Origin: Podarcis melisellensis
Lineage: Eukaryota
Reading direction: 5' to 3' (one strand)
Length of the DNA: 64,000 nucleotides
Assembly (NCBI GenBank): GCA_964234715.1
Contig: OZ174278.1
Of this stretch, positions 17,413 through 45,055 are shown in pieces. Each line of letters begins with the position of its first letter. Positions within the stretch are counted from its first letter, which is position 1. Under the pieces are notes generated by a model, which saw only the letters and a program-made list of their open reading frames with translations, made no database searches and was not told where the DNA came from. A program made the translations under genes and the position numbers.

Positions 17413-18222
17413 TTGTGGTTCGAGGACCTGACCCCCGCGATGTGGAAGGAATACACAAGGACACGTGATATAAGGTTAATGGGCAAGGAAAGGGCACAAC
17501 TTTATTGATTACAGCAGTGAAAAGGTATTGGCTTAGGCATTGGATTTCTGAAACAAGTGGGTTTATTCACCAGTAGGTGGAGCCTGTTGATGCTAATCCA
17601 ACTATAGGCTCACCCCTGATGTCACCGAGGGTCGTGCCATGGCCTCCCGCCAAGCAGGCATCGGACAGAATACACGACCGCCAGATTCCTTTAACCTAAT
17701 ACCCCTAAAAATTGAAGGCATAGGCGATGGCCACACCTAGCTCTTCGACACAGCACATCACATTATTCCAATGCCTAACCGCCACCCGAGCTCCAGGGCT
17801 CGCCGCCAATACCCTCAGGGCTGTAACCAATCCCGGATGCTATTGATGACACTATCTAACCAAATGTCGTTCCCCAGGTCTGATAAATGCACCCCGTTTC
17901 GGGCGGCCAGCTGCGGCCTCGCGCCTAACCTTGGTCTACCACCTGGAGTTCGAGTTTCCTGGTTTTCAAGAAGAGGCATGCGCTGGGTCGAGCTTATGCC
18001 ATTGCTGTGGGAGAGACGACGAAGGATGAGGCCGGGCGAAGGCTGGCGCCGCAGCAAAAGGCTGCTGAACACGCCCCCCTCAGGCACCTGGTTGGATGCC
18101 TGCTGAGGGGCGTGGGTGCCAGCCAGGTGAGGTGGAGGCAGGGGGCTAACGCCCCCTGCTAGGGTCGGTGCTCGGGCTCCCGCCCACAACCACTCCCCTC
18201 TCTTGCAGGGAGGAGAGTCTTT
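17413..18222 (-). mobile_element. Internally deleted and rearranged Ngaro/DIRS-like (tyrosine-recombinase) retrotransposon relic with SGNH-hydrolase remnants
   Basis: 17413-17780 and 18013-18222 align closely with 44289-44654 and 44844-45055. The minus strand at 17815-17901 encodes RNGVHLSDLGNDIWLDSVINSIRDWLQP*, resembling SGNH block V (DGVHL). There is a minus-strand AATAAA at 17501-17506 and no TSD. Confidence 0.72.
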
Positions 18223-18279
18223 GTCTGCATCATTGCTGCGTACTGAGACAAAGTGGAAAGAGCTAAGCAGCTTCATTTG

Positions 18280-18418
18280 TTTGGTTTGTTTCTCTTCTTA
18301 TTTTTATTATCTATTTTTGTGGGATTTTTATATTGGAATTTTATGCTGTGAACTGCCCTGAGAGCTATGGATATAGGGCGGTATACAAATTTAATAAATA
18401 AAATAATAATAAAATAAT
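18280..18418 (+). mobile_element. L2-like 3' end with (AAT)n tail
   Basis: tgtgaactgccctgagagctatggatatagggcggtatacaaatttaataaataaaataataat: a terminal stem-loop (ctgccct/agggcgg) plus tail. Confidence 0.65.
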
Positions 18419-18751
18419 TACCTGTCCATGTGTGCTAATTTTACAAACCAAGAAATCTGTAGCAGTATGTATGGTGGGAAAGAGCCAGCCTCCTGAATTT
18501 GGCATTGCTTTGCTTTACCTGGACAGGGCTGGCAGTGAGGTAAGGTCTATGTGGATATACTGATGGAGCCACTGTCAGCAAACCAGTGGTCCTCCCCCCT
18601 CAATACACCCACATGGCTCTAACCTTGTCCTTGCTCTAGCGCTGACCAGGTATCCATCAGTGTTGCCAGTATCAAGAAGGCAGCTTCATGGCTTTGCCCC
18701 ACTCTAGGCACCACCACTGCAAGAGTCCATCCTCAGGATCTCATAATAGTT

Positions 18752-18966
18752 ATATATATTTACATCCCAACTTTCCTCCACGGAGCTCAAGGTAACATAA
18801 ATGGGTCTCCTCTCTGCATTTTAGCTTCAAAATTATGCTGTAAAGGTAGATCGCACTGGGAGATGACTGGCCCAAGGTTACCTTGTGAGCTTCATGGCCA
18901 AGTAAGAACTTAAACTTGGTACTTTCCAGTCTGACCATGGCAATTTAAGAACTACACTCCACTGGC
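18752..18966 (-). mobile_element. Older, diverged tRNA-derived CORE-type SINE, related to 6257-6504
   Basis: Shares atgactggcccaaggt(t/c)acc and the terminal actaca...cactg with the SINE at 6.3 kb. Confidence 0.7.
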
Positions 18967-19169
18967 CTGAAGTTAACTGAGTTATGTTAAGCAATCCTGA
19001 ATGTATGCATTCTTGAGCATTATAATAGATCAGTTAAAGCTATATTTATGCAAGCAATTTCCACCCCCAGAATCCTAACACCCAGTGGGAACAATCCAAT
19101 ATGGTACAGTCTGTTTATTATAGGCCAGGCTCTGGACTGAGGAGAAGCAACTCAGTATTGTCTATACAA

Positions 19170-19303
19170 GCTATGGGGAACTAATGTCCCTTCACATGTT
19201 GTGGGTTTATGGCTCCAAACAGTCCTAAACATTGGCCATTTTAGCTGGGGATGTTGGGAGCTGGAGTGCAAAGACACCAGGAAGACCACAGATTCCCCAT
19301 TCC
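19170..19303. mobile_element. Old short palindromic hAT-like MITE; relatives at about 34810-34930, 35482-35605 and 61088-61280
   Basis: ggggaact...gattcccc ends with a degenerate internal inverted repeat; relatives carry ggactaca...tgtagtcc arms. Confidence 0.45.
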
Positions 19304-19314
19304 TAATTTATACA

Positions 19315-19425
19315 GACTATTCAGGGTTTCATATGGAGTGTCTCCCAGTCCTACTTGGGGATACCAGGGATTAAACAAGGGGCCTTCTGCACAGAATGCA
19401 TGTCCTTTACCACTGAAATACATCG
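19315..19425 (-). mobile_element. Decayed tRNA-headed SINE
   Basis: The minus strand reads tcagtggtaaaggacatgcattctgtgcagaaggccccttgtttaatccctggtatc, a decayed tRNA A/B-box head; a similar head lies at about 56992-57046 (+). Confidence 0.5.
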
Positions 19426-21169
19426 CTTCTCCACTGCCTATTATTTCTGCCTTGCTATACAATATAGGTTTTTGATTGTACAGTGCTTTGGGTGCCTTCA
19501 ATGGCAGAAAGGTAGCTATAAATAAATCCGAACACATAGTGAAACACACTATGTCCATGACATGTATTTTCTGCATTTCTCATATTCTAAATTTGCTAAA
19601 AGCTGTGAAATCTCTGTTACTGAACATGCTATGCCACCTATTGCACACTGTGCAAAATGTGTCCATTTCTTTACAAAGATGGATATTCAAGTTCCACTTG
19701 AGACAAGAAATCGAAGGAGACAGTTGCAAACACAGAATGGGAGGAAAGGTGATGATATTTTGCAAAGAAGAGGAAGAAGAAATAATGTTGCTACTTCATG
19801 AAAGGCTCAACATGTCTCAATTTGATTTATGCTATTCTGCCAGTAATTCTCCAGGTGATGTACCGTCTACCTGACATGACTATGACTATTCATGAATGCC
19901 AGTTTTGCCAAGCAAGATGTTTAAATGAAAGCTGATGAGGCAATGACCCACTAAGAAACTTGAGATGGAAAAGAATCGGGAGGAGCATCTCCAGTTCATT
20001 CTTATGCTAATTACTGAAGTGAAAGCTTGCACTTCTGAGGATCAGAGGCTGTGCAGGTAATATAAATTTATCATGATGGGTGTGTATAATAAAATGCATT
20101 TTTCTGATTGAGTGTAACAAGTCACCATCTTCCAGTTTCTGAAGGCAGGGCATACACAATAAATAAAATATAAGCTATTTCATGAAGTTTACATGCTGCA
20201 AAAATCCAAAAACATCTTAACAGCAAAAGCTGCTTTGAAGATCTATCATATACATACTACCGCAGATGCATTTAAGCTGATTTTATCATTCATAAATTTT
20301 ATCATTTCACACTGGCATGTGTATGCCTGGAAGAAGTCCACCAACAGCTTCTTTACCGCATGCCCATTCAATCTAAAATTGATCGTGTGCATATTGTTAT
20401 GTTGGTAACATTAGGTCATAACTATAGCCAAGAATCAAGTTGTGTTGAATTTTTTAAAAAATAATACATACATACAATAGCAGATATAACTGCTCTTTAG
20501 CTATACTTTATTCTCTGAATAAAATTATTTCTCTGACTAAAATAGGTATTTTTCATTTGATTTAATATCCTTTACACTTGCCTACCCTCAGGAAAATAAT
20601 AGGCCAATCAGTTTTGCTTTGGAAAGGGCAAATATTGATTAATGAAAATATGCAAAATCTGAGTGCTTTCCATTTAAGAAGCACTTTGTATAGAATAAAA
20701 AGAACATTAAGTTAGTGCAAGTTTTATTTTTCTGTTTTTAATAGTCTCATATTGGAACATTGCTGCAGATAGAATATTTGAATTATTTGGCTGATTTTCA
20801 TAACTCTGAAATACTTTGATCTACTGTTGTATTATGAATTCATTTTCCTCACAAAGACAGCAATGTAGAAAACCAAGCGCACTAAAAGAATTTGGAATGC
20901 CAGAATAAATATCAGATGCATGTAATTCTAAATCATTTCAAGTTAATTTTACCCTATTTCTAAAGATTTGTCTTTTCCTTCAATATTCCTAGGCTTACAT
21001 TTTGATTCTAAAACCAAAACCTGTTTCATCCTATTAAATATTATGGTTGGAGCAAATCACTGGATTAAGGTAACTGAATACAGTCCAAGTTCTGGAATTA
21101 AGTTCAGAAATTTCAACTAACTGAAATACAACTGACTGATTTCAATTGTCGGATCCCCTAAAAAATGCA

Positions 21170-21276
21170 TGGGAGGAGCTTCCTGCAGCCAATCAGAAGC
21201 TGCACTTTGGTTTCTGAACATTTTGGAATTCGGACTTCCAGAATGGATTCTGTTTGACTTCCAAGGTACTACTGTA
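21170..21276. mobile_element. One end of a Tc1/mariner (Tigger-like) MITE
   Basis: Ends ...gacttccaaggtactactg followed by TA, a degenerate TIR of the cagtggtacct type; contains gcagccaatcagaagctgc. Confidence 0.5.
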
Positions 21277-23106
21277 TAGGGTCCCCACAATAAATAGTGT
21301 TTAACTTTGACATTATGTGGCTTTTATTTCCTCAAAGCCCTGCAAAACTACTCAAAAACTCTGTGTGGCTTCCGCCCACTTTCTCTTGTGTTACCAAGAA
21401 GTTAGAGAAAGCTGGCCTTGAAGAATATGAGGCAGTGATATTTAGATATCAAGTAGTTTTATTACAGCTATCTGTAGTGTTGATGTTTGAGGCTTTTGGG
21501 GTTGGTTCCCCCTGCGCACATCTTTTCTAGGCTCCAGATCTAAAGCTAGAATGCAGACGATTGGCCCCAGGAACCAAATGCAGCCCCCTGGAACTTTTTA
21601 CTTGGCCTGTGGGAATCTCAGGCCACATCCACCATGGAAACTGCTTGTTTGGGTGGTTCCAAAACTTCTTTGACCCACGGACCACTTGAAATTTTTGGAG
21701 GGACTTGGCAGACTGACTATTGCAACAATTGCAGTGTGCTGTGCTGGATGTCATATGATTTCCAATTATATTTTTACTGCTTATTTCTTTTCTTATATTA
21801 TATTTCAGTGTATTGCACTTTTGAATTCCATAAAATTCAAATGATAATGCAACAAAATGCAATATGAAAAATAAAAGAAGCAATAAAAATTCAACTAAAA
21901 ATAAATATGCATTTTTAATGGCAGCATGTGGGACACTTGAATGAAGTACATGGACCAGCCACAGTTTGGGAACCTTTGATCAAGAGCAGACAATGGCTAT
22001 CAGGTAGCAGTCCAGAAACAATAATAGCATATTATTTGGTTTTCTCTAAACATGATTTCCAGGAATGGTGTTTCTGTGTGTTTGGGGTTTATTAGGTCTG
22101 TTGGAACAAAAAATCAATAACATCATCTCTTCACCACCATTACTCTTCTATTTCAATATGCAAGCTTAGAAGAATCTGAAGGTGTACTATTGGAAAGTCA
22201 TGCTCCTCTGATGCTACTTGCCAGGTGGAGGAGAGCTGCTACACCAGCTTCCCAGCATGTGTATCACTGTTGTTTACTGAGAAGGAGAGATACCAAGTGG
22301 TGAAGAGGTCAATGAAGTGTAAACACACTGACAGGAGAGCCATATTTGTTCCACCAATGCATTTACACCACAATGAGTTCCTTTTGCCTCAAGCCATCCC
22401 ATCTTCCTGCTTGTAAGCAACAATGAATATAATGTACCAGCTTCATCTCACCAGGAGCACCATTTCTGTTACATGAGGAACAGTGGGCAGGCCTGGACAA
22501 CCTCCCATGTGAACTGAAGATGCACCTTGAAATTTAATCCCAGAATTCTACGCAGTTGGCACATCTTAAGGAACATGCAGGGTAGACAAGTAAATGCAGA
22601 AAGAATTCCTGAAGGTAGAAAGTTTGAAAACTAATGACTTCATGTCTTAAACATTTTGAAGTAGCAAAAGTCAACACAGAAGCATGAAATGTTAATAAAT
22701 GTGCAGAACAAGACAGACCTCTAATACATTTATTTAAGCAATGGAGGTTGGACATTAGCAGTCATTTTCTATAATTTATTCAAGGGCATTCCTGCTGTGG
22801 CTAATTTTTTGCCAAATCCATTTCCCCCCCCCCCCTGAATAAAGTACACTTTCAAAAAATACTTTCCATCTCCTACATTTTCCCCTCACTTGATTACTGT
22901 CATTTTGAAAATTTTACAGCGTACAAGCTAATCAAAATTCACAGAACAGATGTCCTTTCTTTCAGCATTTGGAAACTGATGATGCCGCAGAAGAAAACAT
23001 TTTGATGCACTGAAAATGTTTTAAGTGGACTTGAAGGCGAAAAAAACTTAAAACTTCAACTCTGAAATCCGCAACCAGCTAATATTAAGTACTTGAGCTC
23101 TTAAAG

Positions 23107-23400
23107 CAGGGGAACCTCAGGTTCAAGGAGTGAACATAGTCATCTATGCATCTCTATCCCTTGGGGTTCTCCTTGCCATTCCCTTTCCACAGAGCACCCA
23201 TTCACCAGCCCTGCTCCACACCCTTCTTAAGTAATTTTGCCTGACTGGAATGTGCCTTTGAACTGTGATGATGGCTTTTCTAGGTGTAAAATAAAAAAAA
23301 GAGAAGTGTGTGGGTCTCTATAGAAATCTCTGCCTTGTGTGTCCTGAATGTAGTCTTCTGAATGAATGTAATACTATTGCTATGCCCACTTTTCTTCTGG
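23107..23400 (+). mobile_element. Old hAT-like MITE
   Basis: Starts caggggaacctc and shares gccctgctccacaccctt...aatgtg with 29405-29455. Confidence 0.55.
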
Positions 23401-23665
23401 CCCAACACAGAACGTTGGCGCTGAGGAAATGCTGGAAAATGGCTGGAAAATGGCTCCCTATGCCCGGTGTAAAATAAACATTATGTATTGCGTGTGTTTT
23501 TAATATATGTATTCTTTGTTGGTGTAATTTGGGAATATGTGCAAAATTGCATTAACTGCTTGGTTTGTCTCCGGTTGCCCTTCTCCCGTGTGTGATTTCT
23601 GTTCAGGGCTAGGGCGACAGCTGGGGTGAGCCTTTGGAAAGAGCTAAAGGCTAAAGGCCTCTAGC

Positions 23666-24305
23666 ATGACTCGCCCATCCTCCTTTTCTCCAAAGAATGT
23701 ATGTACATGCTTGGGTGGGTATAAAGCCAAGGCTGCATTCAGCAGCAAAGAGGCAGCAAACAATGTGAGTGGTAGTGAATTGTGGTGGTGCCAACACCTG
23801 TGCCATGTTTTCCTGCCTAAGAATGTGCAAAACTATACCTACAGCAGATGCAAGCTGATTGCCTTGCTGGAAGAGAAGGCATAGCAACTTGAGACCTGCT
23901 TATCCAACTTTGAGCTATTAGAAAAGATGAGGAATTTCTCAGCAGAGTAGACTGTCTTGGAGCAGCGACACAGCTGGGGTCCACCTAGGGAGGTGGAAGA
24001 TCACTCATCGCAGGAGATGAACTCCTGGAGGAACATGACACACAGAAGCAGAACTGTCAGAGGCATGCTGTGTCACTGGAGCTGTAAAATTGATTCCATG
24101 CCCTCACCTCAGACTCCTCTGGGCTAGAGGAGCAAGGACAGGAATTGCAGACTTCGGAACACAAGGAGGTAGCTGGGGAAGATACAGTGTACAGAATGAG
24201 TCCTGTCACTCCTAGAAGAGGAAGAGAGGTGTGGTGGTGGTAGGTGATTCCCTACTGATGGGGACAGAGGCAGCAGTGTGCAGAGGTTACAGGATGTCCT
24301 TGGAG
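23666..24305 (+). mobile_element. CR1 LINE ORF1 remnant (zinc-finger/leucine region and start of the SGNH esterase), disrupted
   Basis: FLPKNVQNYTYSRCKLIALLEEK resembles the CR1 ORF1 N-terminal motif (FLP...YTC.KCKL.ALLEEK). VVVVGDSLLMGTEAAVCR at about 24231-24285 is the CR1 ORF1 esterase GDS motif. Stops and frameshifts lie between the two. Confidence 0.82.
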
Positions 24306-27300
24306 GGGCTACAGCTCTTCCTTCAAGACCCAGTTGTTACTGTGACCCAAGCAATGCTAATACTATATGTTAAGAAGCAAACAAAGTTAGCATTCTTTTA
24401 TAAAAAAAATCTGTGACATCTTTTCTCTGTACCTATTTTTCTTCAGAAATGCAATATTAACACTGTTCACTGGACTTGTTTTCTCCCCACCCCCTTCAAT
24501 TTAGCTATATTTGAATATATATATATATATATAAATGTGTTTCTCCCTTTTTAAAGGCAGAAAACAAATTTATTTACTTCTCTAGATATGAAGGATGTCA
24601 TAAATGTCTGTTTCCATTGGAGAAAAGAAGTGACTAGATGAACAAGCTTATGCGGCACGTAAAATTACAGAGAACATTGCCCTGCTGAGTCCCTCTGATT
24701 CTCAGTTTCTGATCAGATCACATTTGCTTCCCAGTGGGCAACACAATGTAGCTTTAAGACTGCAGTTTCAGATCATAGCAGGCAGGCATATCCCAAATGT
24801 GGCTTATATGGCTTAGTGATGTACTTCCCGATGGGGAACATGATGCCACTTTTAGCCAGCTTCATACCCTTTCATGTTCCCTGGTGAGGTTTCTACTGAG
24901 AGATGGTACTCCCAGTGTATGGTATTGGTATAAAGTCAATGGAATGCCCACAGGAAGGGAGATATATCCATAACATGAAAGCCAGCATTAGTCATGCTCT
25001 GTGTAGACCCATTGCAATTGATGCACTTCCACAACTTGCCCATTGATTTCAATGGGTTTGTGTGGAATAGGTCTCAGTTGGATGTCACCCATAAAAATAA
25101 AGGGAGAGATCTCTGAAGATTCTGCTCACAAAAAGGCAGCTGTGAGTTGTGGTTGGAACAAAAGACAGAACCAGAAAGGTAGTGGTGGCTTTAGTGTAAA
25201 GACATAACTTTTATGTTATGATTGCTGTAATGCTCTAGTAAGAACAAAAGGTATTTGAATTAAAGGACCTTGACACATGCTTTCTCCACAAGAAACACAT
25301 TTTAATTATATGCTCCATTTTCTTCCCCTTTATTTGTGTCATCTGCGCTGTGAATTCATTGAGAGATAAAAGATTTTCCCCTGACATGTTTGTATAACAA
25401 CAAAGTAAGTCTGCAGCACTGCCATTTTCTAGCGTTACATATTTACTGGTTTGCATTCTTTCTCTCTCACCCTTGATTACATCAGAAATCACACTGTTTC
25501 AGCATTTCCCATCTTTCAAGCCAGCACAGGAAGAATGGATAACTACAGTGTTTATTTGTGATTGTTTCCAAACATGAGATCTGCCATAACATGCAGAAGA
25601 GGAAAGGAGAGTGTATTAAAATGAAATGAAGACTTTTAAAAGTCTTTTGAAATTAGTAAAACAAAAACAAAAATATTGTCTAAGAATAACATATTGATTC
25701 TTTGAGCTGCATTCTGCACTGAATAGTTCCAAAGAACATGGCTGAACTGGTTTTTACAGGTCTATATTATATTGGAATCTCACAGTTAAAAATCAGGGGT
25801 GTGTAAAAAACTTTAAGCATAAATATTTGGTGAGATATGCCATGCTAATGTTTACTTGAGCAGGAATATGACATTGTACAGTTCATAATGATGGGTTGAA
25901 TCAGGTAGGGGTTCCCTCAAATGTTCTTCTCTACTTTGGAAATTAAATCAGGTAGTTCCTTTGTCGTGTGGTTCTCTGAAAACCATAACTGCAATATTTA
26001 AAACATCAGGGAGCTTGATAACTTTTGAGGAGCCAGGATACCAGGATAACTGATTCTTTATTCTGGATATCAGATGCTCTTCAAAGTATACATCCCAGTA
26101 CTCATTGCACATGTTAATCATGCTGACAGTAAGGCAATCCATGGCATGTGCATTTTCCAGGGATCTTAATGCTCCTACTAAAGCACATTCCCCAGGACTT
26201 TTGGTGCCTAGGATGCTGTTGCAGTCTTCAGGGTGCCACAGTAGGAGAGTTAGCTCTTTGAGAAGCTCCAGTGAGAGCTTCCATTGCCAGTATTGGCACA
26301 AGGTAGGAAGGGGTGGTGGGATAGGGCACACACAAGGGCAGGAGGTTGGAGGCATGCAAGGGGATTGCTCAGTTCCCATCACACACTTTGTGATTTCAAC
26401 AGGAGCAAAGAAGAGTCCACCATTTGAATTTCAGCTTGGAGAAGCCAAACTGGTTTGGGGTCATGGGGGAGAAGAAGTTAATTCTTTTTTCTTTTTCTTT
26501 TTTTTCTTTTTTCTTTTTTGAAAATAACATAATATGCCAAGCCCAATACCAAAGCCCCCAGCAGAGGCCATTTTGCCCATCACAAATGGAAAACTTGATT
26601 TCTTCCCTTGACTATACTCACTTTATACATACACAGACAAGTCACAAACCAAACTTTTGACTTTGTAGCCCCAGGACTTTGCTGAGCAGCTGGTCACTTT
26701 CCATAGTACTTTTTTTACTCTGGAAATCTTTAACTCTACAACAGTGCACTTAAGGCATTAATCACTTTCAAACAAACAGAAAATTCAAAGAAACAGGGAA
26801 TTCATAGAAGACATCCATGACAGCTCACAGAGGCTGCTAGAACACCAAACGAGAGAGCCCAGAGGCCATATTGTGAAGCCAGATTTGGGTGGGGGAGAGA
26901 TATTATACCAGTTCAAAATACTATCAGATATACTAGAAAAGTGTGTAGTCAAAGCAAAAAGAAAAAGGAAAAAAAAGTGTGGAATAACTAGAAGATTATA
27001 TTCATTTTATATTTTTAAAAAAGATTTGGGCAGGGTAGGGGGGAGCCAGATACTGTATTCAAATATCAATACATTTCCATTAGCTTAATTGGCACTGCTG
27101 TGTATTCTATAATAATACTGAAATGTCTCACAAATTAATGATTGAAGCCGAGCTTCATACAAAGGCAGCTGTCCTTCACCATGCACCCCAAATGTCTGCC
27201 CAGGGCTGGCTCAAGACATACTGCTGCCTGAGGCAAAGGACAAAATGGGGGCCTCCCGCAAACCTCATACAGAAGCCAATTTAACTGGTAGTTAAATCTT

Positions 27301-27573
27301 ACTCCATTACTGGAGCACTTGAGGGCAGCAGGCTAGCGTTGGTCTGTCAGGGCAGGCCACATGACACTCACAGCTCTGTCTTATCCCCACACCTCAGCAT
27401 CTGTCACCTGAGGCATCTTCACCACTTCAGTGCTGGTCCACCCAAGGACACTTTTCTCTCTTTTCCTTCATTGCATACAGTGATGATATTCTGCCCATCA
27501 GACTGTAGGGTGCTGATGCTGAGCTTAGATAGTTTCACACTGACTACCATATTCAACCATCACAAAACTCTCT

Positions 27574-28170
27574 GTTGTTGTTGTTTAGTTGTTTAGTCGT
27601 GTCCGACTGTTCATGATCCCATGGACCAGAGCACGCCAGGCACTCCTGTCTTCCACTGCCTCCCGCAGTTTGGTCAGACTCATGCTGGTAGCTTCGAGAA
27701 CACTATCCAACCATCTCGTCCTCTGTCGTCCCCTTCTTCTTGTGCCCTCAATCTTTACCAGCATCAGGGTCTTTTCCAGGGAGTCTTCTCTTCTCATGAG
27801 GTGGCCAAAGTATTGGAGCCTCAGCTTCAGGATCTGTCCTTCCAGTGAGCACTCAAGGATGATTTCCTTAAGAATGGATAGGTTTGATCTTCTTACAGTC
27901 CATGGGACTCTCAAGAGTCTCCTCCAGCACCATAATTCAAAAGCATCAATTCTTCAGCGATCAGCCTTCTTTATGGTCCAGCTCTCACTTCCATACATCA
28001 CTACTGGGAAAACCATAGCTTTAACTATACGGACCTTTGTCGGCAAGGTGATGTCTCTGCTTTTTAAGATGCCATCCAGGTTTGACATTGCTTTTCTCCC
28101 AAGAAGAAGGCATCTTAATTTCATGACTGCTGCCACCATCTGTAGTGATCACGGAGCCCAAGAAAGTAAA
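27574..28170 (-). mobile_element. RTE-BovB LINE, 5'-truncated, frameshifted, with (CAA)n tail
   Basis: LLLGRKAMSNLDGILKSRDITLPTKVRIVKAMVFPVVMYGSESWTIKKA and LRVPWT.RRSNLSILKEI..ECSLEGQILKLRLQYFGHLMRREDSLEKTLML.KIEGTRRRGRQRTRWLD are classic BovB RT C-terminus; candidate TSD aaaactctct (27564-27573) / aaagctctct (28171-28180). Confidence 0.95.
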
Positions 28171-34016: not shown

Positions 34017-34223
34017 GTTACAGATAGGTAGCCGTGTTGGTCTGCCATAGTCAAAACAAAAAAAATTCCTTCCAGTAACACCTTAAAGACCAACTAAGTT
34101 AGTTCTTGGTATGAGCTTTCGTGTGCATGCATCTGAAGAAGTGTGCATGCACACGAAAGCTCATACCAAGAACTAACTTAGTTGGTCTTTAAGGTGCTAC
34201 TGGAAGGAATTTTTTTTGTTTTG
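34017..34223. mobile_element. Penelope-like element terminal relic (inverted pseudo-LTR hairpin) with 13-bp TSD
   Basis: TSD aaaataaaagaca at 34004-34016 and 34224-34236; 81-bp inverted arms at 34051-34131 and 34144-34224 with one mismatch; the leader ttacag.taggtagccgtgttggtctgcc is shared with 56564-56592. Confidence 0.85.
34133..34167 (+). ncRNA. Minimal hammerhead-ribozyme core of Penelope type; stem I truncated, probably inactive here
   Basis: CTGAAGA (34133-34139), then a, the palindromic stem II gtgtgcatgcacac (34141-34154), GAAA (34155-34158), gc, TC (putative cleavage after 34162) and atacc. Confidence 0.65.
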
Positions 34224-35298
34224 AAAATAAAAGACATTTGCCTATATTTTAAAGTGTTGGGCATATTATCTGAATTTAAAACTTTTATTAATTTTACAAA
34301 ACATTAACTATCATCCAAAGAACCGAAAGGTGTATTTGTGTGAGATCATGCTGAGAAATTCCTACTAGGGATTCCTTTACATTCCAGGATTCTTTGAAAT
34401 AAAATGACTAATAAACTAGTTTAGGTATATAGAAATCCACCATTAATATATAATGAACTTTTTTCTACCACAGCACTAGCTGTGCCCCACCATCACCACT
34501 GAAAAATGGAATACGCAGGAACTTCCATGATCTGATCTCATTCCATCTCTGTAACTTATTAATAAATCTACTGAAAATTCTCTTCAAAAAGGCAGAGTTT
34601 CATACATATAATATCCAATAATCTTTTCTTTGAGATTTAGATTTTACCTTTAATATATGGCACAAACACATATATAATTAATAGCAGGTACTTCCCTGAC
34701 AGTTTTTATTATGTGTCTGTACATATAATAACTATGTCATCAATTATAATATAGAATTGGTTACAGACTTGTCCATTGCAGTTAGTTTTCTTAAATTATT
34801 GTATCATCCTTCCACAACCTGGTGTATTCCAGAAGTTTTGGACTACAACATTGATAATTGGCAACACTGGCTGGGGCTTATGGGTATTGTAGTCCAAAAC
34901 ATGTAGAAGGCAGAAAGTTGGAGAAGGCTAGCCTGTATTATCCTATGTAGTGTACAGTTGGTTCAAAACCTTTGAAGGAAGTTGGTTAGCCCAAACATCT
35001 TCAGTAAAATAAAAAATTAAATAAATTAAAATGCACACTGAGTGAAACTCATATTTTTGGAATGCCTGCAAATAAATATAATGCTTCTGGTGGCAACAGT
35101 AGCAAAAATCCATCCTGATCTTCAAGCCTTTGGGGGTCTTTGACACCACTGATCTTAATAAATCTAGATTTTCAACTAGTAAATTTTCTATTGCTCTTCA
35201 CATTTCAAGTAGCCGGTAGCTATTTAACCTTCACACAGCAGAACATACACATATTTCTGAAATCAAATTACAGCCCATAGGGCAGGTTGAAGCAGTTA

Positions 35299-35440
35299 AT
35301 AAGAACATAAAAATTGCCTTGCTGGATCAAACTAAAGGTTCTTCTAGTCTAGCATTTTGTCATTCCTGTTGCCTCTGGGAAGCTCAGAAGCAGTGCATTA
35401 TGGCAATAGCCATGCTCTGTTATTTGTGCCCAGCATCTGG
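35299..35440 (-). mobile_element. CR1 3' UTR fragment
   Basis: ataagaacataa...ttgctggatcaaactaaaggttcttctagtctagcatt is the reverse complement of a CR1 3' terminal stem-loop and tail; similar to 41768-41830. Confidence 0.65.
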
Positions 35441-37780
35441 CATTCTAAACTTCTCAAACTGCTATGTACTTCTGGGTACTCATAGGGAAGCTGTGGTCCT
35501 TCAAGTGTTGTTGGACTACAATTCCCATCATCATTGGCCAATGATCATACTGCCTAGGGTTTATGGAGTCCGATTATTTCTAGGGGGTCACAGGTTCCCC
35601 ATCTGTGGTCTAGTTGGTCACAATTACATCTGGGTAAATCCCACCAATAACATAGTTCCTAAAATGCAAAGGATCTTAAAGAAGTGGAATGGCTTCAAAG
35701 CAGGAGAAAAACGGTAATACAGTGGTTAGTCTAGAATCAATTGTGTCCACATGAAAAGAAGTGGGATCATGTCCCAATGAATCCAACCTCACTTTGAGCA
35801 CTGGATACACCAATACAGAACTGCACATAGGATTCCATCCTATGGTATTATAAAGTAGAACTGATATAACCAGAATGATCATCAAATTTCTCCCTAAATA
35901 ATAATAATAAAGAGATCTAAGTGCATTCATAGATTCTTCTCAGAAAAAGCATTCAAGAAATGCAAAGGAAATCCAAAGGATGAGCAAAATTTTCTTGGGT
36001 TGATGGGGTCTCACACTACTAAGCTGCCACAGGGTACTACCAGAAAAGAAATTTGAATTGGATGTGGAGGTTCCTCCTGATGTAATCCTGAAATGAAGAG
36101 ACTTTCTTTCTGTGAGGTTACCGAGAAAAACTTGGAGTTCCTTCCTATGTGAAGCATTCAATAATTTCTAGTGAAGGCAAACTATTTGCAATTAGAGTAG
36201 CAGTGTTTCTTAGGGAACTCTGCACAACCCTAGATACTACTCACACAGTCTCTTACTGATCATAAAACATTTCTAGCGGATTGCTTGTTTCCTGTGCCAT
36301 CACTTGCAAATTATTTCAATAGTTCTGGGGTCTTTGACAGTTTATCATATGAACTGCAGACAAAATCTCTTCACCATAAACACCACTAGATCATCTATTT
36401 CACATCTGAGGATTCATAATCCAACAGAATGATCACACATTTGATGACACAAAGATGTGTTTCATTAATAAAGCAGAAGCAAAAATGGAAATCAAAGTTG
36501 CAAATCATTACATTTATGCTGTGGCTGAGTTTGATAGCTGTCTTAACACATTATGAGGAGAATATGAATAACTAGCTGAATTACATTTAGGCAATGGGGA
36601 CTATACAGTGTGGTGGAATGTTAACATTAAAAAACTGTCTTTCTAGTTATTAGAATGGTTTCCGCATACAGGGTGGGGGTGGGACTGTGAGTAATCCAAA
36701 AACTGAGGATGGTGGTGAAGACAGGTGGAAGCATATGAAGATTTTAAATAATGTATGATTGGTAATTGCACTGATGTGATACCATGTGTGATTATGACCT
36801 GATTTCATCATTACCTGTTCAGGGTTAATTTCCACAAATGAATTAAAGTTTAAAGCTCACTGTACTGTGCAACACTGAGGAATGCATCAGTGCTGAATAT
36901 TTGATGAGAGAAAAAGAGGATCTGCCTTTAGCTGACATTTTATTGCTCAAGGTGATAACAGTTAAACAAATGGGAATTGTAGATATTTGATATTCTTCTT
37001 CCCCTTCCACTGAAATGCTATCGATGCCCATTTTTATTAGCTATGGAACTGCAATATCAGAAATATAGATCCAACTGGTTCATCATTACCAGTCCTGAGA
37101 GATGCATTTCCATAAACAGTTTATGAATGCAAAGGAAATACTGTATTTAGAAGGGAAAGCTTTGGTTTATTAAATGCACCATTCCTTAATTGCTGCCAGG
37201 CTCATACTTATTTACTCTGTCTCCTATTAAATCAATGGAATTGGTGGCCCCACAATTAAATATTTTAATCAGAAAATTAACAGCACTGCACATTTTTACT
37301 CCAGTACCTTTAGTGATAACAGTGTAAATACGCTATAAAACCAAGAGCTACTTTAGAGTGCTAAACCTGTGAAATAATAACACACTGTTCTACAGTTCAT
37401 TTTAATGAGGAATATTTCATTAAGGATCTGACAGCCACAACATACAGAACTGCATACAAAAGCTACATTTAGAAAGAAAGCTCTAACAAATTCTGCAGAG
37501 CCAAGCAGGAAAGGTTAAGATATGCCAGCCTTAAGGCTCTTTATGCATGCTTGATATTAAGACTGATTTTCTCCATCTTAGATTGCAACCTACACTTCTT
37601 GTTTTCCTTTTTTTAAAAAAAAATTGTTGGTTTCATTTTCCATTTAGCCACAGAAACACATTGTGTAACATTGGCAAATTTGGAAGAGTTGGAAAGTATC
37701 TTGGAGGTCATTTAGTCCCACCTTATTCACAATTCTGGATATGTACTTCTGGATGCAACTACAGCAGGGCTGTATTAAAG

Positions 37781-38232
37781 CATGGGTCAGCAAACTAAGG
37801 TCCGCGGGCTGGATCAGGCCCAATTGCCTTCTGGATCTGGCTCATGGATGGTCCGAGAATCACCACGTGGATTGCCAACATGCAGGTTCTTTCCCTCTCC
37901 CTCACACGGTGGTGGCAGCGCCTCCCCCCACCTGGCTTCTCCCTGCCCTGCCTAGAGGAGGAAGGGGGCTGGGCTTTGTTGGTGCCAGCAGCAGCAGCAG
38001 CGTTTGAGCAGCCGCCATTTTAAGCAACCCCTCTCCAGAGCCCTTTCAAGCGCCAATCATCGTCCCTCTGCCATCGCTGCCACCTGCCCCTGCCGCTCAC
38101 AAGACACAGGTAAGCAGCCACCAGGGCTCGTGGTGCTCTTGCATCATTCCCCCCCAAAAAATATAGTCTCCCCCCCCCAAGGTCTGAGGGACAGGGGACC
38201 AGCCCCCTGCTGAAAAAGTTTGCCGACCCCTG
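37781..38232. mobile_element. hAT (Charlie-type) non-autonomous DNA transposon / MITE
   Basis: TIRs catgggtcagcaaact (37781-37796) and agtttgccgacccctg (38217-38232) match at 14/16; the 8-bp flanks tattaaag and tgctaaag (6/8, central TA) fit a hAT TSD. Confidence 0.85.
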
Positions 38233-38669
38233 TGCTAAAGACATATTTCCTTAGGGAAAGTAGGTGGGTAGGGCCAGACCCCAAAACAGGCAGACTCCCT
38301 TTTTTCTCTGTCTGCCACACTATTTCCTCTCTCTGTATCTCCTGTTCCCCCCCATCTCCTCCCCCCCATTTACTTATTCCCTTACTATTCCCATTAACCT
38401 TCCTGCCATCCAGGGGGTGGGGGGAGGAGGATTCGCTTTCACTCAACCTAGCAGGGAGGGAAGCAAACTTGGCCTCCTGAAACAGTAGTTGTGCTCCTTA
38501 TTGCCACCAGCATTGTCATTCGTTTTCTGCATGCCAGTTGGAGTACACCAACATTGACCTTCATTTTTGCCTGTGCGTAAAGAAAAATAGGGAGGGGGAG
38601 AAAAAGAGCAGAAAACTGCTGTGGGGCACAGGGTGCAGGCTGACTCTGTCTATCATAACAGCTCTTACT

Positions 38670-38889
38670 NNNNNNNNNNNNNNNNNNNNNNNNNNNNNNN
38701 NNNNNNNNNNNNNNNNNNNNNNNNNNNNNNNNNNNNNNNNNNNNNNNNNNNNNNNNNNNNNNNNNNNNNNNNNNNNNNNNNNNNNNNNNNNNNNNNNNNN
38801 NNNNNNNNNNNNNNNNNNNNNNNNNNNNNNNNNNNNNNNNNNNNNNNNNNNNNNNNNNNNNNNNNNNNNNNNNNNNNNNNNNNNNNNNN
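38670..38889. other. Assembly gap (220 N)
   Basis: Run of n; ORFs spanning it are artefacts. Confidence 1.
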
Positions 38890-39344
38890 TGAAGGAATGG
38901 TGGCACAAAGAGTCTGGCCAAAACTCAGATAAGCAGATGGGTTTTCACCAGGAGTAGGCTGCTTGATAATTTCTACTTTTGAAAGGAATATGAAACAAAA
39001 CCTACCAAAATCAATAATTTTGAATTACATTTTGTTTTGTACTTGAAGTTTCAGAATAATTTTAGTAGCAATGTATTGGAATAGAAGATAAATAATTTCT
39101 ATGCTGATTCATTCCACTACGATGACACCGTATTATTGGAGTAGTGGGGGTGTTCACCAGGAAACACACATCTTCCCATTTTAAATTTGCTAGAGATGTG
39201 TAGCAAGCAGAGAAAGTCTCTATTTCTAGCCCTATGTGATAGATCTACACATAGTTCTATTAAGGATTTGGAAGAGATAGGGTTGCTTAGAAAGTCAAAT
39301 ATTTATTATTAAATATGTGCAGATTTTCACATGTGCAGATGGTT

Positions 39345-39395
39345 GCTAGGGAGAGGGCCTTTTCAGTGGTGACATCCCTGTTATGAAATGATCTC
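39345..39395 (+). mobile_element. Short L2 fragment
   Basis: agggagagggccttttcagtggtgacatccctgttatgaaa resembles 471-512 (aggcagagggccttctcagtagtggcacccaccccgtggaa). Confidence 0.55.
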
Positions 39396-39410
39396 AGTCA
39401 TGAGGCTTTC

Positions 39411-40100
39411 TGTCAGGGGCTCAGGAGCAGAAGCACAGGAAAGGGAGGAAATGGAGAGCGAGGGGGAGGAATCCGAAGGAAACGTAAGCGATGACAGTGG
39501 TCCGAGGTCTCTGAGTCTTTCCAGCGAATCGGAAGACTCACAGAAAGGGGCTCCCATGGTCAGAGCAAGGGGGGTGCCTAGGGGGACACCCCAGGAAGAA
39601 GGGGCCAGAGGGGACTCAGAGAGCAGCAGTTGGAAATCAGGACCAGCTTCCCCACCAGAGCGCAGTAGGGGGGAGGAGTCCCAGGTATCGGGATCAGGCT
39701 GCTCACCGCCAGTGGGAGGAGATGAGTCAGGATTGGCCACGCCTCCATCGGAGAGCGAGGAAACGGTCAAGAGGAAGGTTGGAAGCTGGGCGCGCGCGCC
39801 AAGTTCAAATGTACAGGCGAGCGGCACAGTGGGTAGCCCGGATAGGGAGCCAGGTCCTAAAGCCCGCCGAAAGGAGGGACAGGAGTCAGGGGGGTCAGCG
39901 TCAGAGGAGTCCAGGAAGGAGGAGACCCCGGGGGGCAGAAGGACCCAGAGGAGAAAGGTACGCCGGAAGAGGTGGAGTAAGGCGAGAGTCTTAAACTGGT
40001 GTACAGGGGGTGGAGACTCAGACGGAGCTTCGCCGATCTAGCTTCTAGACGTAGAACTGCACGCTGCAGCTTGTAAATGGAAACTGAACTTAGAATGACA
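39411..40100 (+). mobile_element. Young LTR-like segment (probably a Gypsy-type solo LTR, 3' end possibly deleted) containing a long ORF
   Basis: A sharp switch to purine/CpG-rich sequence starting TGTCAGG, with a TGACA at 40096-40100. No matching TSD (ctttc vs ccaca) and no AATAAA, so the right boundary is uncertain. The frame is open from ATG 39451 to TAG 40041. Confidence 0.62.
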
Positions 40101-40751
40101 CCACACAGCGACTCACATTTCAGAAATCACATATGGAAATCAATTCCTCAAGATGAGTAATGAGGAACAGCCACTTAGATCTGTGCTTATGGTATCCCAC
40201 TGAAAGGCTCCAGAGTTTTACAGCTATGAAACAAAAGTAAAATGGCTCGAGAGTGGGATGCTAATGCAAAACATAGAGATGTTTTCTTAAGGGTCAATTC
40301 TGATATATGAAATCAATCTCCTCCTGCTGCTCCCTCACTGCCTGCAGGATTAAAATCACAAGTGTTGTGGAAATGTGAAGAACTGAATTTAAGACTGGAA
40401 AAATGAGAAACGTAAAGAAACCAAAACCTACAGATTTGCACTCCCTATTCACACTCCTCAGCAACATGGCTGGGCTATACCATCCCCATGTCCCTCCCAT
40501 CCATTTGCCAGATCTTATTATTTCTTCTACTGCATATGCAACCCATTTTCCTTTCATTGGTAACTTTGTTCTCCCACACTCCTATATGAATGTAATTGGT
40601 GCTTAGTGCTTCAGAATCTTTATAGTTTATAAAATCTGTCATACTTTACAACTATGCTGCCAGACAATAGTCTACAAACTGACATAGTACTATCAGGGCT
40701 TCCTTTTTTACTTTTCTTATATCTGTGCATGTCCTTCATACAGATAGTAAA

Positions 40752-40754
<3 letters not shown>

Positions 40755-40813
<59 letters not shown>
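40755..40813. repeat. (TC)n(TG)n microsatellite
   Basis: Seen directly. Confidence 0.97.
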
Positions 40814-41767
40814 CATTTAATATAAGGACTGTTTCAAAAAGTTTAGATCATGACTCTTGTCAGAAACTTTTTTTAAAAAAAAATGTGATTATTTTTTTTA
40901 ATGCAAATTGAAAACACTTAGTCTTGAGGAAGCGATTTTTAAAAAAATACAGTTTCCTTTATAGTCAGCTTCACACCACATCATTTCCCTCATAAACACA
41001 ATGTTAGAGTATGCTATTAGTGAATATAATGGTGTAACGATGTAATGGTGGGCAATTTTGAAAGGTGCAGATGATGTTAAGCATTTTAAAGGATTGGAAA
41101 GGATGGGTAGAAGAGAGAGGGAGACTTTTTTCTCTATATAAGTGGCAGATCCCTGCCTTCTTTAAATTTATATAGCTTAATGAAAGCAAACACAATGCCT
41201 ACGTCAGCCATAGTGCTATCAATCAGAACACTAGCCAGGAAAGCTCCTTTATTTGAAGCTCCTTTATTCAAAATTCCTCTCATGTGCATTTTCCACAGTG
41301 TTCAATGCATGCTGATGCCTGGATGGATGAGGAAAAATAACATGATAAACTGATGATTTATTTCCTTTGAGAGCAACAGAATGTAGAATACTGTGACAAA
41401 TAGAGGATCTAGTGGGACCGGGAAACATTATATTAAAAAGTAGGAGACCTGATTACTGTATTGTCAGTAATTTATCACTCTTTCCCTCAGTGACTTACCC
41501 CTGAAAGACTATTTATGTGTGAAAATCCCTGCAATTGCTCCTTGCAATATTGAACTAGTTTACATCACATATAAGGCTATTCTGAAATTTTAGAAAAGAT
41601 AGTAGAAATGTAGAAACCTACCATGACAACATTTCTCCTTAAGGTGCCTTTCCAAACTCCAGATGTATGAAAGCCTAGTCATATGTGTACAAAGCAGTCA
41701 AGCCTTTGGGAACAGAGCCTGAGGCCACCTTACTTTTTTTCACCACATCGCTCCCTTCATCCAAAGA

Positions 41768-42033
41768 TCATAAGAACAACCCTGCTGAATCAGGTCAAAG
41801 GCCCATGTAGTCCAGCATCCTGTTCTCAGTGGTCAACCATATGCCTACGAGAAGCCCTCAGACAAGACCTCAAGGTACCAGTGCTTCTCTTCCCACTTGT
41901 GTTTCCCAACAGTTGGTATACAAAGGTATAGTGCCTGAGAAAATGGAGGTACTATATAGTCATTGTACATTTAGCAATTGTACATTTAGCCATTGATAGA
42001 TTTATCTTCCATGAATTCGTCAATCCTTTTTGA
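41768..42033 (-). mobile_element. CR1 LINE 3' fragment
   Basis: cataagaac...ctgctgaatcaggtcaaaggcccatgtagtccagcatcctgttctca is the reverse complement of the CR1 3' UTR; the minus strand at about 41987-42020 gives EFMEDKSING*, the ORF2 end. Confidence 0.8.
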
Positions 42034-43409
42034 AAAGAAGTATCCCAGGAATATGACCTTTTACTACTACTACTACTACTACTACTATTAGTATTTACCA
42101 GTAATACTAGTAATACTAGTAGTATTTACCAACCCTTCAAGCTAAGGTCCCAGGGTGGGTTATAGCAATTTTAAATACAAAATTAAAAATCATTTAAAAA
42201 CTTACAATCACAAAAAATACAATCACAAAAATTAACATTTAATAAAAATAACAATATCACTTACTGGTTTCTAACATATGTCTACCATTACTGTTCCCTT
42301 TGTGGGAAAATAAATTCAAGCAGAGGAAATGCAGTTTGAGGGGAATAGGAAGAAAAAAGACACATCTGACTTCAGATGACAGGCTCTTTCTTTCTTTTTT
42401 TTACTCAGCAGCTTTGAAATTGGGGTAGATTCCTAACTGACTGGATAGCAGCAGAATTATTGTGCTGTGAATTAAAAAGCATAAAGTCATAGAACAGGAA
42501 TAGGACACTGACTGCCTAAAGCCCTGATTCAGTTCACCATTTGGACTAGCCTACCATCCTCTTCAACAGTGATCCAAACGGAAACACAAAAGCACCATCT
42601 TCAGCTTCTGCCACTTTAAATGGCAAATGAAGTGCAAGATGGGCAGAGCATGGCAACCATCAGAAATGGGAAACCAGGCTTTTTCTGATGCTTACAATGT
42701 TCCGTCCATTTTCCCTTGATGGAAGTGGTAGTTCTAGAAGATTTCCTTCACCTTGCTCAGTGGGGCACATTGAACATCTTGAAGCAGCAGTTCTCAGTGG
42801 CTTTCCTTAAGGTGATGAAAACCAACCATGTTAGGAGCTGCTGCCTCAGGGCATTCAGCACACCTTGAAACTGTGTCTCTCAAGGCAGCGATCCCATCAT
42901 CACCCCTGCTCATCTAGGCAGCACAGCAGAGTGTTTAGCTTGTGTGTGGAGATGGCTGCACCCTCTATTTCTAAAATGTAAATACAGTTGTTGTTGTTTG
43001 TTTGTTTGTTTTTTGTTGTTAAATAAATGGGATTGGCCTAATCATCTCCATAAGCAGAAACCCTGCAAAAGGACTTCTTATTCTGCAATGGGTCTTCCCC
43101 TCTCTCCTGCTCTTGTCCCCCCTGAAATTATCTCTGATGGGGTCTGGAGAACCACCAAAGAAGTGTATGGAAGAAGGGGATTAGGAATCATTCCACCTGG
43201 CAAACTGCATGCTTTCACAGAAAGAACAATTGTGTGAGTGTGATGTTGAATTCCATCTGATAAAAATAATGGCTTTTGCTGGTTAAACCCTAGGCAATAT
43301 GTTGGTCAGTTTTAAACAGAAGTACCGAAAAGCCATTGCACTGCCCCACCAAGGTCAATATATTTCTCTATATGAGATGTGAATTCAATTTCAATACAGT
43401 TACAACTCT

Positions 43410-43859
43410 TTTTTTTTTTTATATAAATATTTATTAAGGTTTTTACAGAAAAGAAAAAAAACATCCAATAACAATAAACAGTATTACTTTGTTTAACAAA
43501 ATTTCATATCCTCTTTGAACTTCCTCACGCCTCCCGCTCCCATTTGCATCATTAATAAATTTTGTCCAGCAAATTATCATCTTATTTCCAAATTTTAAAA
43601 CCGCTTATTTAATTACAATAAAATTGTTCTCCTGCAATTTTGTTTTTCTTAATCTCTCTTGTCATCAGTTCCTGATCTATTTTAGTGATGGCCAATTATT
43701 TATAACTAAGCATCTTTCTTAACATTCCAATAATTCATAATATTTTTGTAGATAGATCTTAAATTTCTTCCAATCTTCTTCCATCCTTTCTTCTCCCAGG
43801 TCTCGGATTCTGCCAGTCATCTCCGCCAGTTGCATATAGTCCATCAGTTGCATCTGCCA
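43410..43859 (-). mobile_element. L1/Tx1-like LINE 3' fragment with poly(A) and 19-bp TSD
   Basis: TSD tcaatacagttacaactct at 43391-43409 and 43860-43878; poly(T) at about 43409-43420; the minus strand encodes WQMQLMDYMQLAEMTGRIRDLGEERMEEDWKKFKIYLQKY, homologous to the ORF2 end at about 51740-51877. Confidence 0.92.
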
Positions 43860-43954
43860 TCAATACAGTTACAACTCTAAAAAAGTATGCAGAGTCTCTT
43901 CTTTGGTGCATATAACTCTGATCAGTGAGCAATGCAGTGGTACATTGTGCTGCA

Positions 43955-44102
43955 ACACAGCTCAGTTGGTAGAACATAAGACTCTTAAATTTCAGGGACA
44001 TGGATTTGAGCCCCATGTTGGGCAAAAGATTCCTGAATTGCAGGTGTTGAACTAGACCACCCTCATGGTCCTTTCCACCTCTAAAATTCCATGATCCTAT
44101 GA
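43955..44102 (+). mobile_element. tRNA-derived SINE with CR1-type 3' end (Squam2-like)
   Basis: agctcagttggtagaacataagactcttaa...ggatttgagccccatgttggg is a decayed tRNA-Lys-like head, followed by tgaactagacc...ggtcctttccacctctaaaattccatgatcctatga, a CR1-like stem-loop and 8-nt tail. Confidence 0.8.
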
Positions 44103-44288
44103 CATCAAAGTTAGAGGTATATTCCTATTAAAATGTATGGTATGATGTCCATTTAATTATAAAATATGGGACTGATCTGGAGTTCAGTCCTAAGGAATGG
44201 AATTCTGGAGTAAATACTAATTTGCACCATCATTCCCCATACCACCGTAAATATGTTTTGGTTGGATTTGCATCCTGTATCCTGAGGG

Positions 44289-45055
44289 TTGTGGTTCGAG
44301 GGCCCGACCCCCGTGAAGTGAAATGAAGACACAGGGACACGTTATATAAGGTTAATGGGCTAGAAAAGGCCACAACTTTATTGATTACAGCAATGAAAAG
44401 GTATTGGCTTAGGCATTGGATCGAAACAAGTGGGTTTATTCACCAGGGGTTCATCACCTGTTGATGCTAATTCAACTATAGGCTCACCCCTGCTGTCACC
44501 GCAAGTCGTGCCATGGCCTCCCGCCAAGCAGGCATTGGACAGAATACACGACCGCCAGATTCCTTTAACGGAATACCCCTAAAAAATGAAGGCATAGGCG
44601 ATGGCCACACCTAGCACTTCGACACACCACAACACATTATTCCAATGCCTAACCTACCCAACAATACCACAAAAGTTGTGACGATTGCTACGAGGTAGGC
44701 AAAAAAACTAAAAAGCCTATTGCCTAATGGAAAAACTCCTACCAGGCCCCCCCGGGCAACCAGGGCGACCAACCTAAGGTCCATAGCAAGGCCAATGACC
44801 TAAGCCCTAACTAAAAGGGAGTGGAGGGTGGGTGACTCGTGACGAGACGACGATGAGGAATGAGGCCAGGGAAAGGCTGGCACTGCAGCAAAAGGCTGCT
44901 GAACACGCCCCCACCGCGGCACCTGGTTGGGTGGCCACCGGGGGGGCGTGAGTGCCAGCTAGGTGAGCTGGAGGCAGGGGGCAACGCCCCCTGCTGGGCG
45001 GTGCTCGGGCTCCCGCCCACAACCACTCCCCTCTCTTTCAGGGAGGAGAGTCTTT
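44289..45055 (-). mobile_element. Non-coding Ngaro/DIRS-like terminal unit (putative solo A-B repeat pair)
   Basis: Both ends match the 17413-18222 element up to the same terminal bases (ttgtggttcgag... and ...ggagagtcttt); the middle (44655-44843) differs and has no hydrolase motif; minus-strand AATAAA at 44377-44382; no TSD. Confidence 0.7.

Follow-up and report, generated by a model that had tools for sequence, protein, structure and literature searches.

How two mobile elements can begin and end on the same bases and yet have unrelated middles is the question raised by a stretch of 64,000 nucleotides from the lizard Podarcis melisellensis (contig OZ174278.1 of assembly GCA_964234715.1). 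This stretch, referred to below as the window, corresponds to C4:56482001-56546000 of the 1.57-Gb assembly and contains two short elements on its minus strand, copy 1 and copy 2. A first-pass annotation, made from the letters alone, had proposed that both are relatives of Ngaro elements, a group of tyrosine recombinase (YR) retrotransposons whose split direct repeats surround the open reading frames (ORFs) in the order A1-ORFs-B1-A2-B2. That the two elements belong to one Ngaro family is, in our assessment, close to certain. As to their shape, we lean on balance towards the view that both are young, shortened insertions that acquired their form at insertion, when a folded piece carrying the B|A junction would have been recombined first and the end of repeat A would have acted as primer.

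Two members of one Ngaro family

Self-BLAST of the window recovered the two blocks shared by the copies where they had been annotated (17413-17780 with 44289-44654: 90.3% identity over 370 columns, E 9e-141; 18013-18222 with 44844-45055: 87.9% identity over 215 columns, E 6e-67) and bore out that both copies start and end on identical bases. Their middles are indeed unrelated, the top local alignment scoring 16 with both strands tried. The copies represent different subfamilies, and for each the closest relative in the sample shares about 97% identity with it. In copy 1, the middle had been read as hydrolase-coding, which is true, but it consists of two pieces of which one is inverted: a genome search with this middle returned two halves on opposite strands. 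The inverted piece at 17898-18012 (tblastn 84.6% identity, E 1.7e-15) is joined to A with 2 nt of microhomology and has its source 319 bp upstream of the other piece in a relative with the native order. The latter piece, at 17781-17897, matches in tblastn with 76.9% identity (E 3.4e-8), and its DNA is 94.9% identical to the copy at locus L031. The description of copy 1 as a partial A followed by the hydrolase end thus needs revision, as its A lacks only 11 bp and an inversion has to be added.

Copy 2 was rightly called a solo terminal unit. Its layout is A(223)-M(178)-B(366), where M denotes a spacer. The first-pass annotation had assigned the whole of 44655-45055 to A; A in fact occupies 44833-45055 and is followed by M, because A measures about 223 bp and M is absent after A1. 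The assignment of M as a portion of A was rejected since M follows A1 in none of the seven long copies compared.

The parent that had been postulated for these copies, with a YR, a reverse transcriptase (RT), an SGNH hydrolase, and split direct repeats, was found. Complete copies (L114, L123, and L127) read A1-leader-gag-RT/RNase H-YR-SGNH-B1-A2-M-B2, with a leader of 1.5-2.4 kb that varies between subfamilies. In L123, four open frames lie between A1 and B1-A2-M-B2, A1 and A2 are 99.6% and B1 and B2 100% identical, and the YR has a 100% identical copy at one other locus. The family is young, as had been supposed: A1/A2 and B1/B2 are 99-100% identical in the complete copies, and copy 2 is absent from another sample of the same species. 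The RT matches PF00078 above the Pfam cutoff (E 2.6e-11). The YR, which lies downstream of the RT on the same strand, matches PF00589/PF13495 below the curated cutoffs (E 4e-3 and 7e-4); three integrase models match, and the PDB matches are weak and all to Cre-type enzymes. The SGNH hydrolase ORF after the YR matches PF13472, also below the curated cutoff (E 9.5e-6), and gag was assigned by its position and a weak CCCH match (E 1.2e-3). RNase H gave no Pfam match in the parent and is presumably present, judging from motifs in the translation. Pfam searches of the four ORFs with E up to 0.1 gave no match to a methyltransferase or DDE integrase. The elements are assigned to Ngaro because layout and domains agree with the definition of the group in the available portions of PMC9210276, PMC4157794, and PMC3783388.

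Of the findings that had been named in advance as contradicting this assignment (a DDE integrase, long terminal repeats (LTRs) with TG..CA ends, target-site duplications (TSDs) of 4-6 bp, or the lack of a parent with YR and RT), none applies. An LTR retrotransposon or solo LTR was rejected on the first three of these points. A Penelope-like element, suggested by the inversion and the 5' truncations, was rejected as well, as the parent encodes a YR and gave no GIY-YIG match. No ribozyme match was obtained in copy 2, and Rfam gave nothing credible in copy 2 or in six M-bearing loci.

The ends of the insertions are defined by empty sites in public sequencing runs. For copy 1, three of the four runs, all three from other species, contain a joint from 17412 to 18221 that skips 808 of the 810 bp; the same-species run X4 yielded a contig with just 26 bases inside copy 1, which is not enough for a call of presence. 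No RNA data set was listed for the region of copy 1. For copy 2, three of the four runs, with one contig per run, contain a joint from 44288 to 45054 that skips 765 of the 767 bp, and one of these three is the same-species sample mentioned above. Run X14, from another species, carries a 1117-base deletion (window 44244-45362) that spans the copy-2 site. These joints imply that TT/AA flanks each insertion, that the empty site holds a single TT/AA, and that no flank was lost. The earlier statement that a TSD is missing therefore holds for duplications of 4-6 bp, but TT (AA on the element strand) is present at both ends. A short crossover core common to both ends without a classical TSD is in keeping with Ngaro. 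When 156 A starts and 161 B ends were examined, 96-100% carried AA, and the preference for surrounding target sequence is weak. At L160, A begins exactly at an AA within a host repeat, the remainder of which is absent from the 9.4 kb downstream. Separately, three other species have about 350 extra bases at window 17289-17291, an unrelated insertion or deletion.

Shortened copies and their breakpoints

Exact-pattern searches of the genome gave lower bounds of at least 324 A starts, at least 404 B ends, and at least 45 B|A junctions, with 0 for each in the control. A census was taken from 90 A-start matches on C1-C3 (from 100 of the 324 found), which represent 85 elements whose classes were set by hand. 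The commonest form is the solo A-M-B (42 elements), followed by A joined to a truncated part with one B, that is, the type of copy 1 (17). A further 10 elements consist of A only, 8 have kept the B1|A2 junction, 3 are of the form A|truncated-M-B, and 5 are unresolved; none was shown to be full length. Among the A-only copies, 8 of 10 stop no more than 25 bp from the end of A.

The position of the A end recurs in a larger sample comprising the 81 A1 starts, among all fetched loci, that belong to neither full nor solo copies. In 57 of them the breakpoint falls in the last 25 bp of A, and two have a deletion inside A. When copies with a B end are taken by themselves (n = 59), 48 break in the last 25 bp of A, where 0.27 would be expected under a uniform null. 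The downstream breakpoints, on the other hand, are scattered, with distances to the B end of between 90 and 6393 bp; just one pair of copies has a common downstream breakpoint, with differing A ends. The junctions mostly show overlaps of 0-5 nt or short gaps. At L126, a complete 5S rRNA (7234-7352, minus strand; model positions 1-120, Rfam 107.9 bits) is fused to the end of A1, replaces the first part of the leader, and joins the leader further down, which reads as a template switch of the RT. Inversions were found in copy 1, L037, L113, and L128. The inverted piece of copy 1, like that of L037, has the arrangement seen in the twin priming of long interspersed nuclear elements; by analogy, such a layout would need a sense-strand 3' end at the terminus of A, and a fold-back switch would also fit. 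Two side observations concern these junctions. A short poly(A) filler is present at the A-end junction of L095, about 228 bp into the element, and L096-L099 (C7:41310577-41315167) form a tandem array in which A|truncated-B alternates with A-M-B, with exact B|A junctions.

A tree was built from 53 solos together with 38 3' units belonging to longer copies. Both kinds are mixed in three of the main clades, and no young clade is made up of solos only. Three solos form an older clade for which the sample contains no close relative among the long copies (89%).

Predicted junction fold, spacer, and proposed routes of insertion

The B|A junction is predicted to fold into an imperfect hairpin of about 80 nt, with fold z-scores of -4.9, -5.8, -5.1, and -3.1 in the four commonest variants of the family. 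A diverged comparison set consisted of 20 loci from related families whose YRs are 56-60% identical. Of these, 13 have two B repeats with A2 and the spacer between them, and 11 of the 20 have A1 as well; the 7 loci without a B1/B2 pair were excluded from the analyses of the junction and of M. A common hairpin core was found in 13/13 diverged loci and in six junctions of the window's own family, consisting of a 5-bp helix with the crossover AA at its end, followed by a 2x2 loop and by an 8-bp stem whose sequence varies. The crossover AA lies at the end of the invariant CAA/TTG helix, beside the 2x2 loop, in all 19 junctions. Across 16 aligned junctions, 95.2% of the cells are paired (47-62% in slid controls) and 7 of 13 pairs change on both sides; the covariation score was reached by none of 500 shuffles. 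RNAalifold, run separately, returned 21 pairs, 14 of them with compensatory changes. The hairpin contains an invariant U-G pair, and the sense strand gives the more stable fold in 13/13 diverged loci. The hairpin thus combines conserved imperfect pairing, covariation, a crossover in the stem, and strand asymmetry, as do the attC sites of integrons, and by this likeness we infer that the predicted fold may serve the recombinase as a folded-strand substrate.

The spacer M occurs in solos and, where copies are long, between A2 and B2, and it is conserved across the diverged families with a length of 160-185 bp. In these families its start is formed by four C3 runs, which correspond to a G-quadruplex motif on the minus strand. 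The four-C3 motif has 13 matches in 396 kb, one in each of the 13 diverged loci and always at the A2/M border; it follows A1 in 0 of 11 diverged loci. The remainder of M is predicted to form a multi-way junction, within which a U-rich internal loop has G-C pairs on its flanks. In this fold, 98.6% of the cells are paired (30 pairs, 12 sequences), with only 3 of the 30 pairs changing on both sides, and the U-rich loop is part of the minimum free energy structure in 4 of 6 sequences, copy 2 not being among them. In copy 2, one G of the closing G-C pair is altered. The loop lies about 300 nt upstream of the polyadenylation signal AATAAA, which is itself 81-96 nt from the B end in 11/11 diverged loci and 88 nt in both window copies. 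A U-rich internal loop set between helices, with G-C pairs next to it and a poly(A) site further downstream, is typical of the expression and nuclear retention element (ENE), and by this likeness the loop in M may have a stabilizing function.

From these features, the favoured route would proceed as follows. An RNA from A1 to B2 would read through the poly(A) signal of B1 and be stabilized by the ENE-like loop in M, a spacer that lies only before B2. The RT would make minus-strand cDNA from B2 towards A1, frequently stopping early, and a plus-strand B1-A2 piece would end close to the A/M border, with the G-rich tract as the probable stop. The YR would then join the folded piece to any AA, leaving the left flank linked to A with a free 3' end. 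If this A end annealed to the complement of A1, a full element would result, and annealing to the nearer complement of A2 would deliver a solo A-M-B such as copy 2. Pairing elsewhere by 0-5 nt of microhomology would give copies that are truncated, inverted, or chimeric, copy 1 being one of these; repair to host DNA would give an A-only copy. The solos would accordingly be by-products rather than a mobile family.

A more far-reaching and tentative version, to which we would give somewhat less than even chances, extends this route to Ngaro as a target-anchored, single-strand integration. A plus-strand strong-stop ended by a G-quadruplex would fold like attC, the YR would exchange a single strand between it and any AA, the A end now linked to the chromosome would prime the second strand, and an ENE in the spacer would select full-length RNA. 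If this is true, split direct repeats are a three-signal device whose diagnostic failure products are the solos and the A-capped truncations, and the single-strand route is one not described for eukaryotic retroelements.

Several points weigh against the favoured route, beginning with the fact that its order is inferred entirely from finished insertions, no intermediate having been observed. Thirteen of the 81 copies break deeper in A, and 9 of 81 continue past A into the leader, which would imply A1 rather than A2 as source or an ordinary later deletion. The uniform null used for the clustering is simple, and some of the sampled copies were taken from short windows, which biases the sample towards short copies; the census, chosen by A start alone, gives a lower hand tally, with 28 of 41 breaking in the last 25 bp. 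The A-only copies were inspected over 3.6-9.4 kb downstream. As a proxy for age, the median nearest-neighbour identity is 97.9% in solos and 99.2% in copies that keep A1 and A2 (p 0.48), which is no significant difference and leaves later recombination some likelihood. With regard to the folds, the 16 aligned junctions are related, so that the shuffle control overstates significance; the z-scores of the diverged junctions are modest (-0.8 to -6.5), and some B control windows fold as well, down to -4.7. Finally, the G tract of the window family, in which the breakpoints were counted, is imperfect, and ViennaRNA calls no quadruplex there.

According to the classical DIRS model, truncated cDNA first becomes a double-stranded circle, which the YR then integrates at its B|A junction; closure by homology between A copies would account for the solos and end-joining for the other forms. 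This accounts equally well for an AA core at either side, for the exactness of the outer ends, for the solos, and for the truncation ladder, and it is the standing DIRS model in the available part of PMC7192593. Nevertheless, we consider it rather unlikely here. By itself it cannot yield A-only copies whose end coincides with the A border (8 of 10), and it leaves unexplained why the pairing of the junction is conserved and not its sequence. Moreover, the same part of that source describes DIRS-1 cDNA as mostly linear and single-stranded, with circle junctions that could not be amplified.

The hairpin might instead, or in addition, act as an RNA signal, for example by suppressing the poly(A) signal of B1 so that the RNA reaches B2, a proposal that is compatible with any of the other readings. 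The one place where it forms, B1|A2, lies just downstream of an AATAAA, and both the greater stability of the sense strand and the invariant U-G pair would suit an RNA. We nonetheless think this unlikely, given that the crossover AA occupies one structural position in 19/19 junctions, which a poly(A) switch does not need.

Recombination after insertion would produce A-M-B from A1 x A2 and A-ORFs-B from B1 x B2, with copy 1 deleted and inverted in place. Such recombination has been proposed for the solo AB repeats of the Cafeteria Ngaro (PMC8547959, in the text available), long copies without A2-M-B2 are known (L031 and L038), and the age medians given above lean in the predicted direction, though not significantly. 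However, at about 366 bp the B repeats exceed the A repeats (223 bp) in length and lie at a shorter distance from each other, so that on this reading B x B products should outnumber A x A products; the hand tally of the census gave the reverse, with about 42 of the A x A type against 8 of the B x B type. Neither the breakpoints at the A end nor the truncated-M rungs nor the 5S insert are predicted by later deletion, and solos with 100%-identical neighbours exist. Post-insertion recombination as the source of these forms is thus improbable. The suggestion of the first-pass annotation that the A-M-B unit is itself a mobile non-autonomous element, amplified from solo masters as in SIRE, can draw on its abundance (42 of 85), the polymorphism of copy 2, and the older trio of solos, but is hardly credible, since the tree intermixes solos and 3' units from long copies without any young solo-only clade, and since a solo lacks the internal B|A junction that it would need to restore its ends.

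Known systems and further features

Among the closest described elements are the Ngaro-like DIRS-53_XT and DIRS-54_XT of Xenopus, as far as the accessible text of PMC9210276 goes. They likewise encode gag, RT/RH, YR, and SGNH in overlapping frames and have split repeats A1...B1-A2-B2 that are near-identical in young copies. Repeat A measures 236 bp there and about 223 bp here, repeat B 152 bp there and about 366 bp here, and the conserved 160-185 bp spacer between A2 and B2 is a difference from the Xenopus elements; that text makes no mention of solos, a truncation pattern, or folds. The Cafeteria Ngaro has solo terminal units scattered genome-wide and 5'-deleted copies, as observed here. In the available part of PMC8547959 its solos are ascribed to recombination resembling that of solo LTRs, whereas the census and breakpoints presented here favour an origin at insertion. 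SIRE, which corresponds to the A2-B2 region of VIPER in Trypanosoma cruzi, similarly consists of A, a short exclusive region, and B, although it belongs to another YR group and its internal region is about 30 bp instead of 178 bp. Whether SIRE is mobile or a remnant is left open in the portion of PMC6681497 at hand, whereas the tree presented here favours by-products.

The attC sites of integrons, as described in the accessible sections of PMC2727003, are imperfect single-strand hairpins with conserved pairing, internal loops, and a variable terminal loop, and they share with the B|A junction the strand asymmetry and a YR crossover in the stem; the comparison is limited to how the sites would work. 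Here, by contrast, the host is a eukaryotic retroelement, its YR matches weakly to Cre-type enzymes, and the hairpin is known from folding predictions. If the folded-strand route holds, this would be a vertebrate retrotransposon with an integron-like site that is read by structure and needs only two matching target bases. ENEs of the PAN RNA from Kaposi's sarcoma-associated herpesvirus and of Evade in Arabidopsis (PMC7583470 and PMC12501189, both in part) resemble the loop in M in their stem-loop with opposed U tracts and adjacent G-C pairs and in their position, which is within a spacer that precedes the terminal repeat's poly(A) signal. The accessible text on Evade (PMC12501189) makes no mention of DIRS or Ngaro. 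In contrast to the known ENEs, the putative triplex here lies inside a multi-way junction about 300 nt before AATAAA and has no Rfam match.

The literature searched, which comprised titles and the openings of abstracts with key subscription papers and supplements outside it, contained no report of a junction hairpin, quadruplex, plus-strand stop, ENE, or A-capped truncation in Ngaro and no paper on lizard Ngaro families. TOC1 of Chlamydomonas, a member of the PAT group and not of Ngaro, presumably also has a unique segment between its internal A and last B. In the literature consulted, a tested replication model exists for DIRS-1 only, and its primer and the specificity of its YR are stated to be unknown in the available part of that work (PMC7192593). 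As a mere catalogue entry, the present family would be ordinary. Its interest lies in its testable anatomy, since it offers short sequences for experiments: the 80-nt hairpin with a crossover mapped by empty sites, the G-rich stop at A/M, and the ENE-like loop. The features of the two window copies are listed in Table 1.

Table 1. Coordinates of the parts of copy 1 and copy 2 in the window
Copy	Feature	Position	Strand	Remarks
1	Repeat A	18013..18222	-	210 bp, 11 bp short of A end; 94-95% identical to A of long copies; AA core 18221-18222 at start; holds inner stem and 3' arm of predicted junction hairpin
1	Inverted piece of SGNH hydrolase ORF	17898..18012	+	N-terminal part, about residues 56-94
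1	3' end of SGNH hydrolase ORF, stop codon, and short trailer	17781..17897	-	
1	Repeat B	17413..17780	-	368 bp; AATAAA 17501-17506; AA core 17413-17414; holds 5' arm of predicted junction hairpin
2	Complete repeat A	44833..45055	-	223 bp; AA core 45054-45055
2	Spacer M	44655..44832	-	178 bp; multi-helix RNA fold predicted
2	G-rich tract, directly at A/M border	44817..44832	+	Antisense strand; imperfect G-quadruplex motif
2	ENE-like arm of M	44694..44743	-	6-bp stem, opposed U tracts, G-C closing pair (predicted)
2	Repeat B	44289..44654	-	366 bp; AATAAA 44377-44382; AA core 44289-44290

Beyond the window, a first look at the genome returned 1444 YR candidates, and about 95 of the 119 scored are relatives at 56-60% identity; most have open frames, and many lie on C19. 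These numbers suggest a Ngaro radiation that is large, diverse, and recently active. Several young subfamilies (L114, L128, L109, and L111, also L121, L122, L126, and L246) have broken frames or an internal deletion in common, from which it follows that long non-autonomous masters appear to be mobilized in trans. Short tandem repeats occur in the variable leader of L038 (555-890 and 1187-1441 of the element) and inside repeat A of L265 and L266. Within the window itself, 8128-8194 and 3413-3453 (plus strand) are old fragments of B repeats from diverged Ngaro families, located around the poly(A) signal.

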